The notes: generated from the sequence alone by a model not told the origin. A DNA stretch of 64,000 nucleotides from Thermoplasmata archaeon (GCA_020348445.1 CP070751.1:3184341-3248340); one strand, 5' to 3'; positions 26,898 to 34,273 are shown, counted from the stretch's first letter. Numbers and translations are program-made.

Positions 26898-27419
26898 ATG
26901 GCGAATGAGGCTGTCGACTACAAAAGGGAATATGAAAAGGAGCAGGAGCGCCTGACCAAACTATGGGACGCCTACGAAATCCAAGAAAAAGATTTTGAAC
27001 AGGCCAAGGAGAAGATAAAAGTTCTCGAGGATGTAGTTGAGGAGAAGGAGCGAATAATAATCAGTTTGAGACAGGTTGCTGAGAACAGGGATTCGGAAAT
27101 AAGAGATCTGGAAATCAGGCTCTCTTCATTGGAAAGGGAAAATGCGGATTTCGAGCCAAAAATGAAGGAACTGGAAAAGGAATTGAAAAAACAGCGGGAT
27201 CAATTTGCTAAACTATACTCATTGGCCGAGGAATTGGATGAGGAACTGAGATATGCGAGAAAGGAAATCGAAATCAGGGACGATTGGTTCAGGGATCATA
27301 TAAACGTATTCAAAAGCATGTGCAACGCCATCTCATCCAGAGAGGAAATCGTGCGAGAAACAGCATTGAAAAAGTCAATTACATCTCCAAAGGGTGAATT
27401 TTCAGATTTAGAGATGTAA
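26898..27419 (+). CDS. Coiled-coil protein
   Basis: SD GGAG; heptad-rich, E/K-rich 173 aa. Confidence 0.8.
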   Translation: MANEAVDYKREYEKEQERLTKLWDAYEIQEKDFEQAKEKIKVLEDVVEEKERIIISLRQVAENRDSEIRDLEIRLSSLERENADFEPKMKELEKELKKQRDQFAKLYSLAEELDEELRYARKEIEIRDDWFRDHINVFKSMCNAISSREEIVRETALKKSITSPKGEFSDLEM

Positions 27420-28813: not shown

Positions 28814-28882
28814 AATTGGAGTATCAAACATGGGTATTTTCGTGGAAAAATTTAAATTGAACTCTTTCTCTCTACTCTTTTA

Positions 28883-30391
28883 ATGCCGGGCCGAGATTAC
28901 TGGTTTGACGAAGTAGGCGCTAGAGATAAGTATGCTGTTTCTGGTGACTGCCAGGAACTTGAATTCACCCACGGCATCGAGGTAGAGTACATCCTTGTTG
29001 ATAAGAACGGTAAGAAACTCTCACATGCTGAATTTGGGGAGATTTACAACTTTATTCTTACAGAATGGCTTAGAGATGCCTTGGAACACAACATTCCGAG
29101 ATTCTATGATGTAAAGACCTCTTCTTTGGAGATTGCACCTTCGAGAAACTCCACTTACGATGCCCTTTATGTTACCTATAAGGCAAGAGGTAAAAATGTC
29201 AGGGTTGAGCTAATATCTGTTGATAGAAATGTTGTGGAATGGCCCCTTGTGGAGATTGCCACTCCCCCATGTGAATCCTATTACGAACTGGGATGGTGGT
29301 CATCAACACTGTTAACCCTAATCAACTTTCGTCTCAATCAGGAAGGATACAAGAACCATATAATGCCATTTGGAGTCAATCCTTATGAAGAACTGGAGAC
29401 CATCACACAGACCGATTCGTTTCCCACATGCGGAGAGCATCACCATATAAAGTTGATTGATCCACAGACCATGGGTCTTGATGAAAGAGCATTCTTTACA
29501 AATTTTTACCATCTTGTAAGGTTCTTCACAGCGTATTTAATACTGCTTTCGGCCTGCTCGCCCTTTGCCTCTAGGGGATTATGGGGACGGTTTCGTGCTG
29601 ATGACCCAGAGATGCCTTTTCCTAGATGTGTGAGAAGTATTAGGGTCCTGTATAACAAGAAGCACCTTTGTAACTTCCAGGAGGGCGAATACATGCCCTA
29701 CCTCGAAAAGGGATGGCTGGATAAGAAATACTTTGTGGAAGAGTTCAAAGCACAATCCAATTCCTACCGAACAGACACCCATTTCCTTGATGTTGATCCC
29801 ATATCAAAGGCAAACCACACCACAGAAATAAGGTTCTTTGATTCGCAACCCAGTGTGGCAAGAAGAGTGGGCCTTGCCGTTCTCATACAGATGCTGGCCA
29901 GAAAGGCAAAGAAGCTAGTTGTCGAGGATGAGGACAATCTTCTCGAGGTTTTAAAGGAGCCAAATGAAACTCTGCACGCCCTGAAGAAAACGGCCTGTGA
30001 GGGAGGAAATTGGTTTAGACCTTCAAAGGATCCCATCTTCGGGGAACTCTCCGATAAACTCAAGCTTAAAAAATCGAGAATCGAAAAGAACATTCTTTCT
30101 GATCTGGCTTTGGGCATGATGTACATCATCAGAACAGAAATAAAAGAAAGCAATGTCATCTATTCCCATTTCTTGGATCCCATCCGTCATTCCATCTACG
30201 GAATGGATGGAAACGGCATCTCCCCTGCCCAATACTGGCTTTTTACCTATATCAACTTGGAACAGAACATAAATCCAGTTGTTGAAAAGATTCTCGATGC
30301 TTCTAAACGAGGAATGAATATGTGGTATGATCCAATTGTAAACGAACCGATATTCATGAACAACGGATTCAAAACTCGAGGTGATCGGTGA
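28883..30391 (+). CDS. Glutamate-cysteine ligase type 2 (GCS2)/carboxylate-amine ligase superfamily protein
   Basis: GIEVEY, VEIATPP, CGEHHHI, RSIR, TTEIRFFD match the ExE / E / GxHxH / R / ExRxxD catalytic set. Confidence 0.8.
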   Translation: MPGRDYWFDEVGARDKYAVSGDCQELEFTHGIEVEYILVDKNGKKLSHAEFGEIYNFILTEWLRDALEHNIPRFYDVKTSSLEIAPSRNSTYDALYVTYKARGKNVRVELISVDRNVVEWPLVEIATPPCESYYELGWWSSTLLTLINFRLNQEGYKNHIMPFGVNPYEELETITQTDSFPTCGEHHHIKLIDPQTMGLDERAFFTNFYHLVRFFTAYLILLSACSPFASRGLWGRFRADDPEMPFPRCVRSIRVLYNKKHLCNFQEGEYMPYLEKGWLDKKYFVEEFKAQSNSYRTDTHFLDVDPISKANHTTEIRFFDSQPSVARRVGLAVLIQMLARKAKKLVVEDEDNLLEVLKEPNETLHALKKTACEGGNWFRPSKDPIFGELSDKLKLKKSRIEKNILSDLALGMMYIIRTEIKESNVIYSHFLDPIRHSIYGMDGNGISPAQYWLFTYINLEQNINPVVEKILDASKRGMNMWYDPIVNEPIFMNNGFKTRGDR

Positions 30392-31847
30392 TTCAATGCT
30401 TATCCTAAAGGACGAGTACGATGTGATCCACAATTTCGTGCTACTGGATGCACATACGCACCTTAGAGTTAACAAGTTAGAGGGACTTGTACCGTCCGAG
30501 TTCGTCAGAAGGTATTCCAAAGTCGTAAAGGACGTTGTCCGCGATATCAAAAAGAGTCCAAAGGAGTATCGATATCATTTCCCATGGAAATTGAAGAATA
30601 TATCCACAGATTATTACCAATTCTGTCAGAGGGACATATATACAGTTTTTCACCCCGGGGAGGAACTGAGCAAAGCACCTGAAAAATACTCTTGCTTTGA
30701 CTTCATAATCAGTTTCTCAGCAAATCTAACCTCACCTCTTCCCCGAGATTACAGAAACGCAAATTCCAGGGTAAGGGAGACCCTGATAGAAAAATCTCCT
30801 GATGATAATTCTCCTCATAATAACTTCCGTTTCATAGGTTTTGGAAGACTGGATCCCAATCACAGTGATTCACTGGATACCTTCGACAACGTGTGTCAGT
30901 TGGGATTAAGAGGCTTAAAACTTCATCCAAAGGAGGAACAATTCGAGATAAATGATGCGAAAACAAAATATATTCTTAAAAGAGCGGCAAATAATAATAT
31001 GCCTATTATTTTCCACACACAAGATGGAATGGCCAGTAATATCGAGGAAGTGGTGAATGAAACAATTTCCGATTTCATCGATGCAGATAAAACCGACTTG
31101 ATACCAAGGCTGAAAGTAATATTAGGCCATGCCCCTTGGAATGGTGTTGGGAATAAAAAGTTATACAGGGCCCTTTCCCATCCAAATATATTTGGCGAGC
31201 TATCAACCCTGAAACCTGATAGCTATGAGGATTTCTTCTCTTCTGCAAAAAAAGATGTTAAATATGAGCGCATATTCGATGTGAAACAGCTGTCAGAGCT
31301 GGATAAAAAAACAGTAGAAAGGTTGTATTTTAATGCATTCGGTTACAACAAATTGAATTACTGGTCCAGCAAACTTATGTTCGGATCAGATACACCTTAC
31401 CCGCCCTCCCATGGAGCCACCCCTTTAATCAAACACATGCTTAGCAAAAGATTTGTCGGCAATGCCTCAGATATTCAGAATATACTGGCTGTTAGTGCTT
31501 TAAGGTTGATTCCCCCAATAGCCAGAGCCAATCCCCAAATAACCAGGGAAAAGGCCACAACAAGCGGACAATATCATCCTATGCAGCTGGAGATTCAAAA
31601 AAAGGATTCCAAAATCCTGGGTATGGATCCCATTCTTGAGGTGTTTCCGAAAGTGAGAATAAGCGGTGCTGTCTTCAGCTTTCTAAAGAATGGAGATGTT
31701 GGAAGCTATTTGTACAAATCACTCTTCAGCCCAAAGAAGCCATTGAATACGGTGATCCCAAATCCGATAAACCTGCCGTATTCATCCATGACCACCAGTA
31801 GAGTAAACATGACAAGGAACATCGAGATGAGCCTTGGAGAAGAGTAG
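30381..31847 (+). CDS. Amidohydrolase (Amidohydro_2-like TIM barrel)
   Basis: LDAHTH, GLKLHP, IFHT, ILGHA, MFGSDTPY; overlaps the ligase stop by 11 nt. Confidence 0.82.
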   Translation: MIGDSMLILKDEYDVIHNFVLLDAHTHLRVNKLEGLVPSEFVRRYSKVVKDVVRDIKKSPKEYRYHFPWKLKNISTDYYQFCQRDIYTVFHPGEELSKAPEKYSCFDFIISFSANLTSPLPRDYRNANSRVRETLIEKSPDDNSPHNNFRFIGFGRLDPNHSDSLDTFDNVCQLGLRGLKLHPKEEQFEINDAKTKYILKRAANNNMPIIFHTQDGMASNIEEVVNETISDFIDADKTDLIPRLKVILGHAPWNGVGNKKLYRALSHPNIFGELSTLKPDSYEDFFSSAKKDVKYERIFDVKQLSELDKKTVERLYFNAFGYNKLNYWSSKLMFGSDTPYPPSHGATPLIKHMLSKRFVGNASDIQNILAVSALRLIPPIARANPQITREKATTSGQYHPMQLEIQKKDSKILGMDPILEVFPKVRISGAVFSFLKNGDVGSYLYKSLFSPKKPLNTVIPNPINLPYSSMTTSRVNMTRNIEMSLGEE

Positions 31848-31904
31848 ACTCAATCGCTTTTTTCATATTGGTTTCGAAAGTATTATAAACAAATTTAGAC
31901 TTTC

Positions 31905-33296
31905 TTGTTTTCGATGACACTGATTCTCAAAGCTACTTTAAAGGACGGGATTGATTCCTGGCTCATTAAGATCAATACAAAAGTGGCTCAGGAAAACAAT
32001 ATCAAAAGAAACGACATATGCGAGGTTTTTAACAGGGACAGAGGCAGCTCCCGGCATCTTAGGGTGAGGGTGGACGGTAGAATAAAATCAAACTTTGCCA
32101 TAATCAACAGGGAGACTGCTCAATTGGAGGGTGCTGCAAACAACGACCAACTGGAGATTTCAAAGGAAGAACCAGTTGAGGCCAAGGAACTGCTTGTGAG
32201 GGTGGAGATGGAGGGTGTGGAGCGCGAGGAGCAGATCAGGATCATGAGCGAGATAAATCAGAATCAGGGCGAGATTATACATAAATTCTTTAGAAAAAAG
32301 AAACCGGTTTTCAACCAGGGCCTTAAGATTTTTTGGAAAGAAAAGGACTTGAACCTTAAAATATTGAATGTGGACCCCTTTCCCTACGCTGCCTATGTTC
32401 CAGGTACGAAGGTCAGGGTAGCATTGACCTCACCCTTTAATGGTATTCTCATGGTGGATACGTCCGGTTCCATGTACAAACAGCTCATTCCCAATGAACC
32501 AGGAACGCTTAGACTCTCAGATGATCCTATTCTAAACGAACTAATGGAGAATCCAAAATATTCTATGCTCAAAGACGTGATAAATGCAATCGAGAATGAT
32601 TCGCAGGTGCCGAGGCTGTACGGTGCCCTGGGTGCAGTTCTACTCTATTTCTCTGAGAAGGCTGAGAGGGAGCTTTCTGAAAAGGTGGGATTGATAAGCT
32701 ACTCCAACAAGGCTAGGGTGGCAAGTTACAAATACAACAATGACAACAGGCTCTGGTTGCAGGTGGGAAAAGGCGGTATAACCAACTCCGATCAATACAA
32801 AGAGATGTTGGTAAAAACGCTTTTTAACTGTATAGGTGAGAACACCAAAAAGGTCACACACGGATACAATGCGTTCGTTGAGGCTTGGAAATTGTACAAA
32901 ATGATGTCCAAGGAAGGAAAGCCCCTTCCCACGATGATCGTGATATTATCTGATGGGGAGTTCAATGGAGACAAGGGTAGCTTCGCTAAATTGGAGGATG
33001 TTCAAAATGTCTCTGATAAGGTTATGGACCTCATCAACAAGGGATTTACTGGCGATAAAAGGGTCGTGATAAATGCGGTTTATATAGGCGATGACCAAAG
33101 TCCCAGGGGCCAGATAGCAATCGACACCTTGAAGAATATTACACAGGTAACCAATGGTGAATTGATCCAACCAAATCAACTGGTGGAACTTGCTAAATTC
33201 TACGAAAACGCAGCTCGCTCATTGGTATATGACCTGGGTACCAAGGAAGAATTTGATGAAGAGGATGAAGAGGAAGAAGAGGAAGTTGGGGAATAA
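31905..33296 (+). CDS. CDC48/VAT N-domain-like plus von Willebrand A fusion with acidic tail
   Basis: N-terminal ~175 aa resembles the double-psi barrel + CDC48_2 pattern (KEEPVEAKELLV; ILNVDPFPYAAYVPGTKVRV); MIDAS VDTSGS and ILSDGE; EEFDEEDEEEEEE tail; no AAA domain. Confidence 0.7.
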   Translation: MFSMTLILKATLKDGIDSWLIKINTKVAQENNIKRNDICEVFNRDRGSSRHLRVRVDGRIKSNFAIINRETAQLEGAANNDQLEISKEEPVEAKELLVRVEMEGVEREEQIRIMSEINQNQGEIIHKFFRKKKPVFNQGLKIFWKEKDLNLKILNVDPFPYAAYVPGTKVRVALTSPFNGILMVDTSGSMYKQLIPNEPGTLRLSDDPILNELMENPKYSMLKDVINAIENDSQVPRLYGALGAVLLYFSEKAERELSEKVGLISYSNKARVASYKYNNDNRLWLQVGKGGITNSDQYKEMLVKTLFNCIGENTKKVTHGYNAFVEAWKLYKMMSKEGKPLPTMIVILSDGEFNGDKGSFAKLEDVQNVSDKVMDLINKGFTGDKRVVINAVYIGDDQSPRGQIAIDTLKNITQVTNGELIQPNQLVELAKFYENAARSLVYDLGTKEEFDEEDEEEEEEVGE

Positions 33297-33344: not shown

Positions 33345-33752
33345 TTACTCTGTTTCTGAGCCTGTTTCTATAACTGTCATGAATCCACAGACATCACAGA
33401 CTATGGCCTCATCCACTGTGAAGTCGCCCACCTTCTCTGCGGTGTCCTTGATCATAACGTCCCCGATATTCAAATTCTCATACTCTTTCAGTGTCCCTTC
33501 TTTACAAAGGCTGCATTTTTTATCTGTATCTTTTCTGGGTTTTCCTGAGGTTCCCCTGAAGTATATGGATTTACAGGATTCGCACCGCCAGGGGTTGATC
33601 TTGTAGTGGATGTTGTAGATATGGGAGACCATATCTTGTGCCAGGTCCAAATCGATATTCGCAAAGTCTGTTAGGGGTAATGTGCTCATGTCAAGCTCTT
33701 TCACACTTTCCTCGGCTCCGCACCTTATGCAATTGTAGGGCATTTTGACCAC
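33345..33752 (-). CDS. Double zinc-ribbon (YgiT-like) protein
   Basis: CIRC, CESC, CSLC, CDVC. Confidence 0.8.
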   Translation of the reverse strand: MVKMPYNCIRCGAEESVKELDMSTLPLTDFANIDLDLAQDMVSHIYNIHYKINPWRCESCKSIYFRGTSGKPRKDTDKKCSLCKEGTLKEYENLNIGDVMIKDTAEKVGDFTVDEAIVCDVCGFMTVIETGSETE

Positions 33753-33862
33753 AGATATACATTAGGGCTTTTATATAAATATATTTTGCCCAGCATTAAT
33801 ACAAAAAATGGATAAAAAAAGGGCAAATCCATTATATATTTATTAAGTTGAAAAACCGGCTA

Positions 33863-34273
33863 TTAATCCTCGATTTCCTTACCAGTTTCCAACACCCTCA
33901 AAAATCCGCATTTGTCGCAGACGAGGGCCTCGTCGATGGTCAGTTCGCCCACCCTCTCGAAGGTATCTCTGACAACAAGCTCCCCTATCGCCGCATTTTC
34001 AAATTCCGCGTACTTGCCTTTCTTGCAGAGCTTGCATTTGAATTTTGTTTTATTTCGCACATTATCTCCCCTTCCCCGGAGCAAAACGCTCTGGCATGCT
34101 TCGCATCGCCACGGAGGTAAAATATACAGCACATCCAGGGTATGTTTCGGGTCCTCTGTAAATATGTTGATATTGGCATAGTCGAGTTGGGAAAACGCCT
34201 CAGTGGAAAACTCCTTGACGCTCCCTTTTTTTCCGCATGTGGGACAATCGAAAGGCATTATTTCACCATTCAT
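33863..34273 (-). CDS. Double zinc-ribbon (YgiT-like) protein, tandem paralog
   Basis: CPTC, CEAC, CKLC, CDKC; alignable end to end with 33345-33752. Confidence 0.8.
   Translation of the reverse strand: MNGEIMPFDCPTCGKKGSVKEFSTEAFSQLDYANINIFTEDPKHTLDVLYILPPWRCEACQSVLLRGRGDNVRNKTKFKCKLCKKGKYAEFENAAIGELVVRDTFERVGELTIDEALVCDKCGFLRVLETGKEIED

Follow-up and report, generated by a model that had tools for sequence, protein, structure and literature searches.

Three co-oriented genes lying between positions 28,883 and 33,296 of a 64,000-nucleotide stretch of Thermoplasmata archaeon DNA (GCA_020348445.1, CP070751.1:3184341-3248340; hereafter, the window) encode a YbdK/GCS2-type ligase (gene 1), an Amidohydro_2 hydrolase (gene 2), and a protein that joins a Cdc48-type N-domain to a von Willebrand factor A (vWA) domain (gene 3; Cdc48N-vWA). 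The three genes very probably work together, and the module they form might place an amide mark on a macromolecular client (probably a peptide or a protein) and take it off again, a reading to which we assign a probability of roughly 45%. The combination of ligase, hydrolase, and Cdc48N-vWA protein is apparently undescribed in the literature, in agreement with the original prediction for this stretch, which had recognized the trio from no described pathway and had proposed for it an archaeal system resembling pupylation or peptide glutamylation.

Gene 1 ligase

Gene 1 is strongly supported, by sequence profile and by structural model, to encode a YbdK/GCS2-type ATP-dependent carboxylate-amine ligase with intact catalytic motifs. 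When the sequences of genes 1 and 3 were searched directly against Pfam, NCBIfam, and the PDB, no usable match came back, and profiles and models alone were informative. Gene 1 itself had no Pfam match even at an E-value of 10 and fell short of the PF04107 gathering score, and its direct NCBIfam search returned only weak YbdK matches (2e-5; 22-23 bits, far under the cut-offs). Distant homologues of gene 1 do pass PF04107 (26 bits against a cut-off of 21), many of them carrying precomputed PF04107 assignments, and a profile of 39 family members reached YbdK (1r8g) at an E-value of 9.5e-14, with the ExE, HxH, and TxExR blocks aligned. YbdK was the only match of this profile in the PDB, and the pupylation enzymes PafA and Dop were absent at E-values up to 1. 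Residues E33, E35, E124, H186-188, R296, T313, E315, and R317 are invariant in the 39 sequences. The AlphaFold model of gene 1, with a predicted local distance difference test (pLDDT) of 89.7 and a predicted template modeling score (pTM) of 0.93, also found YbdK as its best match in a fold search (1tt4/1r8g; E 3e-12 to 1e-10, TMt 0.71-0.73), the matches coming in the order YbdK (3.3e-12), plant glutamate-cysteine ligase (GCL), GshF, GshA, and then Dop (2.9e-5) and PafA (6.3e-5).

The complete GCS2-type catalytic motif set that the original prediction had read in gene 1 is thus borne out by the invariant residues, the alignment with the YbdK motifs, and the YbdK fold. A particular closeness to PafA and Dop, such as its pupylation-like reading would imply, was not supported, as YbdK was matched at 3e-12 versus 3e-5 to 6e-5 for PafA and Dop, which had no sequence match; by profile and model, gene 1 is YbdK/GCL-like rather than specifically PafA-like. 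The protein ends in a helical C-terminal extension of ~150 aa, of which residues 362-381 fall in the predicted interface with gene 3, and the genome of the window carries a single gene of this type. A search for longer fused forms, with a length window from 1377 aa (so that forms of ~960 aa lay outside it), found only one giant protein of 2783-2786 aa (L043:7236-15593, minus strand), which has a ligase domain of the gene 1 type at its end and, nearer its start, HhH and SAP motifs; the genome encoding it (G280) also has a second hydrolase/vWA pair, on contig C20.

Gene 3 protein and its predicted contact with the ligase

No Pfam match was obtained for gene 3 (no VWA, no CDC48_N, and no IML1), while a Pfam VWA match is present in its homologues in family f16 and elsewhere. 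In the structural model (pLDDT 87.6), residues 1-172 can be overlaid on the N-domain of p97 (3qq7; Z 18.8, root-mean-square deviation (rmsd) 2.7, 163 aligned residues; 5glf_E, TMt 0.76), and Atlas Cdc48 clusters match residues 1-174 with an rmsd of 2.6-2.7, so the N-terminus as modeled is a complete Cdc48 N-domain, consisting of a double-psi barrel and a beta-clam. Residues 172-437 adopt a vWA fold, with Z scores of 21-22 to TFIIH p44, 4fx5, and ITIH1, 19.7 to Rpn10, and 20.8 to ArnB (28% identity), and the residues of its metal ion-dependent adhesion site (MIDAS), D182, S184, S186, T315, and D347, are invariant in 37 sequences. These matches agree with the earlier description of gene 3 as a CDC48-like N-domain fused to a MIDAS vWA domain without an AAA ring, and the double-psi barrel, whose absence had been named beforehand as a refutation, was found in the model. 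Over 405 residues, gene 3 also matches a cluster of 117 proteins in the ESM Atlas, most of them Asgard (TM 0.74/0.81). Families f1 and f10 have the acidic tail of the protein, whereas f16 lacks it; the tail ends in VGE, where the tag Pup has a conserved C-terminal GGQ or GGE, and its sequence is not conserved. Between two genomes in which the ligase has 64% identity, gene 3 has 77%.

The assignment of gene 3 as the partner subunit of the gene 1 ligase is strongly supported by structure prediction. Co-folding of the two proteins gave a score of 0.75, compared with 0.00 for the best control; among solved complexes, 58 of 80 scored this high, as did 2 of 110 mismatched pairs, counts that are rough since custom alignments were used. 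The runs share at least 80% of their contacts, with a partner pLDDT of at least 84, and we know of no solved YbdK-Cdc48N complex, which makes it unlikely that the score reproduces a known structure. The Cdc48-type N-domain and part of the vWA domain are predicted to clamp onto the ligase beside the invariant R296 and the family-specific helix-loop 362-381, the contacts involving residues 37-46 (with the FNRDRG loop at 39-44), 70-75, 152-157, and, in the vWA domain, 195-198 and 251-254 of gene 3, and residues 171-178, 244-248, 295, 297, and 362-381 of gene 1. Both proteins keep their interface motifs in f1 and f10, and in f16 the two sides differ jointly. None of the contacts placed with confidence involves a MIDAS residue, so the MIDAS site may be free.

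Gene 2 hydrolase

Gene 2 is, by its sequence, a metal-dependent TIM-barrel hydrolase of the Amidohydro_2 family (PF04909; E 1.3e-8, 35.4 bits against a cut-off of 26.4). Residues D18, H20, H22, K175, H177, H207, H245, and D332 are invariant, and the HxH, K, H, H, D pattern would fit a two-metal site with a carboxylated lysine; the amidohydrolase motifs that had been noticed earlier are therefore confirmed, both by the score over the cut-off and by the invariant metal-ligand residues. The same metal-ligand pattern was given for the amidohydrolase half of FluG and for 2QPX (PMC6478659). The gene 2 profile found only marginal matches of the ACMSD/LigW type in the PDB (E ~0.1-0.2) and no match to 2QPX. 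Beyond the assigned fold, the protein has a C-terminal extension of ~100 aa.

Co-occurrence and arrangement of the three genes

The phyletic distribution was counted in 401 Thermoplasmata genomes, of which three unpublished ones (G097, G211, and G301) enter only the totals given here and for Dph6 below. Since related genomes are not independent, the pattern amounts to about three lineage-level observations. Besides the genome of the window (G000), which belongs to family f1, gene 1 was found in 4/4 genomes of f1, 7/7 of f10, 14/44 of f16, and 1/5 of f17 (27/401 in total), gene 2 in 4/4, 6/7, 13/44, and 1/5 (25/401), and gene 3 in 3/4, 6/7, 14/44, and 0/5 (24/401), while none of the three was found in the other ~30 families of the sample. 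All three genes are present in 19 genomes, the ligase and one partner in eight, and a single gene in three. The 11 partial genomes are metagenome-assembled genomes (MAGs) of 53-95% completeness, and in two of them (G067 and G177) the missed gene is present at the locus (L049 and L044, respectively). Co-occurrence of the trio elsewhere, on which the original prediction had been made to depend, was thus found across f1, f10, and f16.

The arrangement of the genes differs among families. In f1, the order is NOG1, gene 1, gene 2, and gene 3 (L003), whereas in f10 genes 1 and 2 lie upstream of rps12-rps7-EF2 and gene 3 is located elsewhere in the genome. Family f16 consists of soda-lake MAGs, one of them a Candidatus Natronoplasma MAG; here, two genes for proteins with ubiquitin-like (Ubl) domains precede gene 2 and are divergent from a longer, membrane-anchored gene 1, which in turn is convergent with gene 3. 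The adjacency of genes 1 and 2 is kept down to 25-30% identity. Moreover, a fused protein (P0160/P0253) combines Cdc48N-vWA (residues 5-408, E 1.9e-30) with a gene-1-type ligase (residues 446-905, hhalign E 4.8e-78), and an Asgard contig (L084) has a Cdc48N-vWA gene and, two genes away, a ligase of the gene 1 type (hhalign E 1e-34). A 357-aa gene between these two on L084 was considered as a gene 2 homologue and rejected because it is not homologous, and the neighbors of one further gene 1 homologue (L004) include no homologues of gene 2 or gene 3.

Several of these loci have surroundings of their own. In family f10 (L001:5109-14488), the gene 1-gene 2 pair lies between Dph2 and a BPL_C protein on one side and the rps12-rps7-EF2 operon on the other, 65 nt upstream of rps12; this setting and the NOG1 neighborhood in f1 could reflect a link to translation or chance. 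The f10 locus prompted us to consider gene 1 as a replacement of the diphthine-ammonia ligase Dph6, which was rejected because PF01902 is found in 389/401 genomes (f1 5/5, f10 6/7, f16 42/44). The fused Cdc48N-vWA-ligase protein (962/968 aa; L081:8001-10889 and L083:10001-12907) is located at a contig end in both samples and is accompanied by three N6/N4 methyltransferases, Mom, SLATT, TGT, QueC, QueF, Ogg-HhH, and a ThsB-type TIR protein, which by sequence looks like a viral or defense-island setting. As well, a gene 3 relative, P0100, lies in another kind of cluster (L082:1-17299), which also encodes a T2SSE-type ATPase, a further vWA protein, and a protein of 3943 aa, so the Cdc48N-vWA family also seems to serve other systems.

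Ubiquitin-like domains

The two small proteins of the f16 operon have an N-terminal Ubl domain (PF00240, 4.9e-8) followed by a C-terminal domain of ~65 aa with a WLxxNIG motif, and this second domain is homologous to part of the N-terminal extension of the f16 ligase (hhalign 93.5%, E 2.2e-7). A homologous Ubl is fused in front of Cdc48N-vWA in P0103, from a Thermoplasmatota MAG (hhalign 93.3%, E 2.7e-7). The N-terminal extensions of other gene 3 relatives are mostly non-Ubl, with P0103 clearly and P0111 perhaps carrying one; a Pfam search of these extensions found no Ubl. In all module-linked cases, the Ubl precedes another domain and the C-termini vary. As a conjugated tag needs a free, conserved C-terminus, and here another domain follows and the C-termini are unconserved, the module-linked Ubls look, from their sequences, like docking adaptors rather than conjugated tags.

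The Ubl hits in the genome of the window were rejected as members of the module. They comprise a eukaryote-type ubiquitin (ending in VGG followed by KDE) beside a Ubl-E2 fusion with an HPN...C active-site motif, located ~1 Mb upstream of the window (G000:C1:2153840-2156533), and belong to an E2-type system; the locus hints at a ubiquitin system of the E1/E2 type in this member of the Thermoplasmata.

Proposed mechanism and alternative explanations

In the mechanism that we propose, the free MIDAS metal of gene 3 would capture an acidic residue of the client, the ligase would activate a carboxylate as an acyl-phosphate and join it to an amine to yield an amide or isopeptide-type mark, and gene 2, translationally coupled to gene 1, would remove the mark or prepare the substrate. 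Where Ubl domains are present, they might tie the Cdc48N-vWA protein to the ligase, much as UBX domains, which bind the p97 N-domain, dock there. Cdc48N and MIDAS-vWA domains are protein-binding modules, and a macromolecular client is favored because every accessory part is a protein-docking module, because the ligase is fused or tethered to such modules in several independent ways, and because MIDAS is a carboxylate receptor, matching a carboxylate-activating ligase. It is further suggested by the f16 operon, with its two Ubl proteins that share their second domain with the f16 ligase.

Several points weigh against this reading. The co-fold expresses the confidence of a model rather than a measurement. 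Cdc48N-vWA homologues also occur without a nearby ligase (L080, L082 with its T2SSE ATPase, and the P0244 locus), and the genome of the window has no homologue of the f16 Ubl proteins with their C-terminal domain, so Ubl adaptors are not universal. YbdK and the closest relatives of gene 1 in the fold search (GCL and GshF) make small molecules, and small molecules are also the substrates of known Amidohydro_2 enzymes, mostly decarboxylases, lactonases, and hydratases. Moreover, FluG, whose amidohydrolase half has the same H, H, K, H, H, D ligands and is fused to a gamma-glutamyl ligase of the glutamine synthetase (GS) superfamily, was read as metabolic (PMC6478659).

The main rival explanation, which we hold to be less likely, is a small-molecule pathway. 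Genes 1 and 2 would produce a small amide, of the gamma-glutamyl type or another, and process it in salvage or signaling, as proposed for FluG, and gene 3 would regulate the ligase or serve as its scaffold, comparable to GCLM for eukaryotic GCLC. In favor of this explanation, the nearest relatives of both enzymes act on small molecules, the closest folds to gene 1 being YbdK (the sole PDB match by sequence profile), plant GCL, GshF, and GshA, and it would also suit the adjacency of genes 1 and 2 where gene 3 lies elsewhere, as in f10. However, a metabolic enzyme would not be expected to come with a Cdc48 N-domain, a vWA domain bearing a MIDAS, and recurrent Ubls. Further points against it are the fusion of the ligase to its adaptor and their predicted binding, the membrane anchor of the f16 ligase and the domain that it has in common with the Ubl proteins, and a relative in which the ligase domain ends a protein of 2786 aa with HhH and SAP motifs. 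Strict pupylation, in which a small protein tag would be ligated through its carboxylate to target lysines, gene 2 would remove the tag, and gene 3 would read the tag and hand the targets to Cdc48/VAT or the proteasome, is unlikely. PafA and Dop are members of the same superfamily as gene 1 and are among the fold matches (E 2.9e-5 to 6.3e-5), Ubl-domain proteins are encoded in the f16 operon, and the vWA domain of gene 3 is similar to that of Rpn10 (Z 19.7). Yet PafA and Dop are far weaker matches than YbdK and unseen by sequence, the hydrolase is not a paralogue of the ligase, and the Ubls of the f16 proteins and of P0103, which come first, are followed by another domain, and have unconserved C-termini, are unlike a tag. 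Outside the unrelated E2-type locus 1 Mb away, the genome of the window has no such Ubl gene; a coarse and noisy scan found no conserved small open reading frame (ORF) between or beside the genes, and no proteasome or Cdc48 gene is a conserved neighbor at the module loci. Of the pupylation-like or peptide-glutamylation system first envisaged, the idea of a protein-directed module gains from the recurrently attached Ubl domains and from the fusion and co-fold of ligase and adaptor, whereas the YbdK-like ligase and the adaptor-like Ubls count against it.

The surroundings of the fused P0160/P0253 protein, which adjoins several DNA methyltransferases, Mom, SLATT, TGT/QueC/QueF, and a TIR protein, could also point to a conflict or defense system, in which the vWA adaptor would sense an invader protein and the ligase would respond, and vWA proteins are reportedly common in NTP-dependent conflict systems. 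We consider such a role quite improbable, because the ligase is fixed and vertically kept in f1 (5/5) and f10 (7/7) in housekeeping surroundings (the NOG1 GTPase and rps12-rps7-EF2, respectively), and gene 3 is highly conserved (77% versus 64% for the ligase), unlike fast-evolving defense genes.

Gene layout, transcription signals, and neighboring genes

The longest ORFs of the three genes run from 28883 to 30391 (502 aa), from 30381 to 31847 (488 aa), and from 31905 to 33296 (463 aa), all in the same orientation, and the overlap of 11 nt and gap of 57 nt reported earlier are correct for these longest forms. Because the orthologues of genes 2 and 3 begin with MLILKDEY and M(T/S)LILK, gene 2 probably starts at ATG 30396, 4 nt past the gene 1 stop, and gene 3 at ATG 31914, 66 nt past the gene 2 stop. 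The features of the region are listed in Table 1.

Table 1. Genes, domains, and putative transcription signals at the module locus (window coordinates).
Feature	Position	Strand	Remarks
TATA-like box ATTTAAAT	28850..28857	+	26-33 nt 5' of gene 1 ATG; read from sequence
Gene 1, YbdK/GCS2-type ligase, 502 aa	28883..30391	+	Profile, motifs, model
Gene 2, Amidohydro_2 hydrolase, 483 aa from ATG 30396	30396..31847	+	Longest ORF opens at GTG 30381
T6 run, 11 nt past gene 2 stop	31858..31863	+	Read from sequence
TATA-like box TATTATAAA	31881..31889	+	25-33 nt 5' of gene 3 ATG
Gene 3 residues 1-172, Cdc48/p97-type N-domain	31914..32429	+	Structural match
Gene 3 residues 173-445, vWA domain with MIDAS	32430..33248	+	Structural match and invariant residues
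Gene 3 residues 446-460 and stop codon, poly-acidic disordered tail	33249..33296	+	pLDDT <50
Two paralogous zinc-ribbon proteins, ~135 aa each	33345..34273	-	Convergent with gene 3

The ATTTAAAT box is a possible promoter of the gene 1-gene 2 unit, and the T6 run after gene 2 is a possible archaeal terminator signal. The TATTATAAA box suggests that gene 3 has its own promoter, which fits with gene 3 being unlinked from genes 1 and 2 in f10, and the boxes and the T6 run together suggest one transcript for genes 1 and 2 and a separate one for gene 3.

The zinc-ribbon pair, with four CxxC motifs, also adjoins gene 3 in another f1 locus (L003), and C-terminal zinc ribbons are present on some gene 3 homologues (P0096, L039:852-2345); the two genes are possible accessory genes of the module, and a zinc ribbon beside a vWA protein is reminiscent of the pair formed by the zinc finger of ArnA and the vWA domain of ArnB, and also of Sec23/24. 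Upstream of NOG1, the window encodes a 173-aa coiled-coil protein (26898-27419, plus strand), which has 86% identity to its counterpart at L058, compared with 73% for the ligase. The genome of the window is a single contig of 5.16 Mb with an estimated completeness of 82%, whereas other sampled Thermoplasmata genomes are mostly of 1-2.5 Mb. The homologues come from MAGs named Thermoplasmata or Methanomassiliicoccales.

Comparison with known systems

If the ligase marks proteins, the module would be an unrecognized reversible modification system in archaea close to the eukaryotic stem, its building blocks being a ligase of the glutathione type and a docking module in the style of Cdc48. We tentatively suggest that it might constitute a third, independent prokaryotic protein-modification machinery beside E1-type ubiquitin/SAMP and PafA-Pup, shared by Thermoplasmatota and Asgard archaea, in which a YbdK-type ligase held by a Cdc48N-vWA adaptor writes and a TIM-barrel amidohydrolase erases. 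Even with a small-molecule product, there is no precedent for a GCS2 enzyme that has Ubl adaptors and a seemingly obligate Cdc48N-vWA subunit. The proteins are small, soluble, and well predicted, and hence amenable to recombinant binding and activity work.

Among known enzymes, YbdK (PF04107; 1r8g from E. coli and 1tt4 from Salmonella) has the same fold and the same ExE/HxH/TxExR blocks as gene 1, which is ~130-150 aa longer owing to its helical C-terminal extension. To our knowledge, YbdK has neither a Cdc48N-vWA partner nor a coupled amidohydrolase, whereas gene 1 has both, the former partner looking obligate, and the module would give YbdK-type ligases a testable physiological context. Pupylation in Actinobacteria (PafA, Dop, and Pup) likewise combines a ligase of the GS/GCL superfamily with a hydrolytic enzyme, and the module could similarly write and erase an amide bond on proteins; the eraser there, however, is Dop, a paralogue of PafA, and the hydrolase here is an unrelated TIM-barrel Amidohydro_2 protein, with no Pup-like tag found in the coarse scan and no proteasome link found at the module loci. 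In FluG and the SCO6961-SCO6962 pairs (PMC6478659), a metal amidohydrolase (H, H, K, H, H, D) likewise goes together with a carboxylate-amine ligase that depends on ATP and comes from the same superfamily, but that ligase is of the GSI type, not GCS2, and no vWA, Cdc48N, or Ubl partner was described.

For gene 3, the N-domain of p97/Cdc48, with its UBX and Ubl adaptors, offers the nearest parallel to the N-terminal half, as the domain itself matches and Ubls accompany the module, although gene 3 lacks the AAA ring and would bind Ubls only by analogy, while its vWA domain resembles those of Rpn10 and archaeal ArnB. Over the whole length, the top Foldseek matches of gene 3 in the PDB were to DEPDC5/Iml1 (~440 columns, E 2e-12, TMq 0.40-0.45, rmsd 9-10 A), in which the N-terminal domain (NTD) is NSF-N-like and the SABA domain Sec23-like (PMC8534245). 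The N-terminal region of DEPDC5/Iml1, a component of GATOR1/SEACIT, thus has the same order as gene 3, a Cdc48/NSF-type N-domain followed by a vWA/Sec23-trunk-like domain. The likeness is architectural only, without sequence similarity (no Pfam IML1 match), and with so high an rmsd may hold only domain by domain; moreover, DEPDC5 partners NPRL2/3, whereas gene 3 partners a ligase. As tentatively as for the machinery as a whole, the adaptor, having the two-domain plan of the DEPDC5/Iml1 N-terminus, may be its prokaryotic forerunner, and such a prokaryotic counterpart of the NTD-SABA architecture would bear on the origin of GATOR1/SEACIT.

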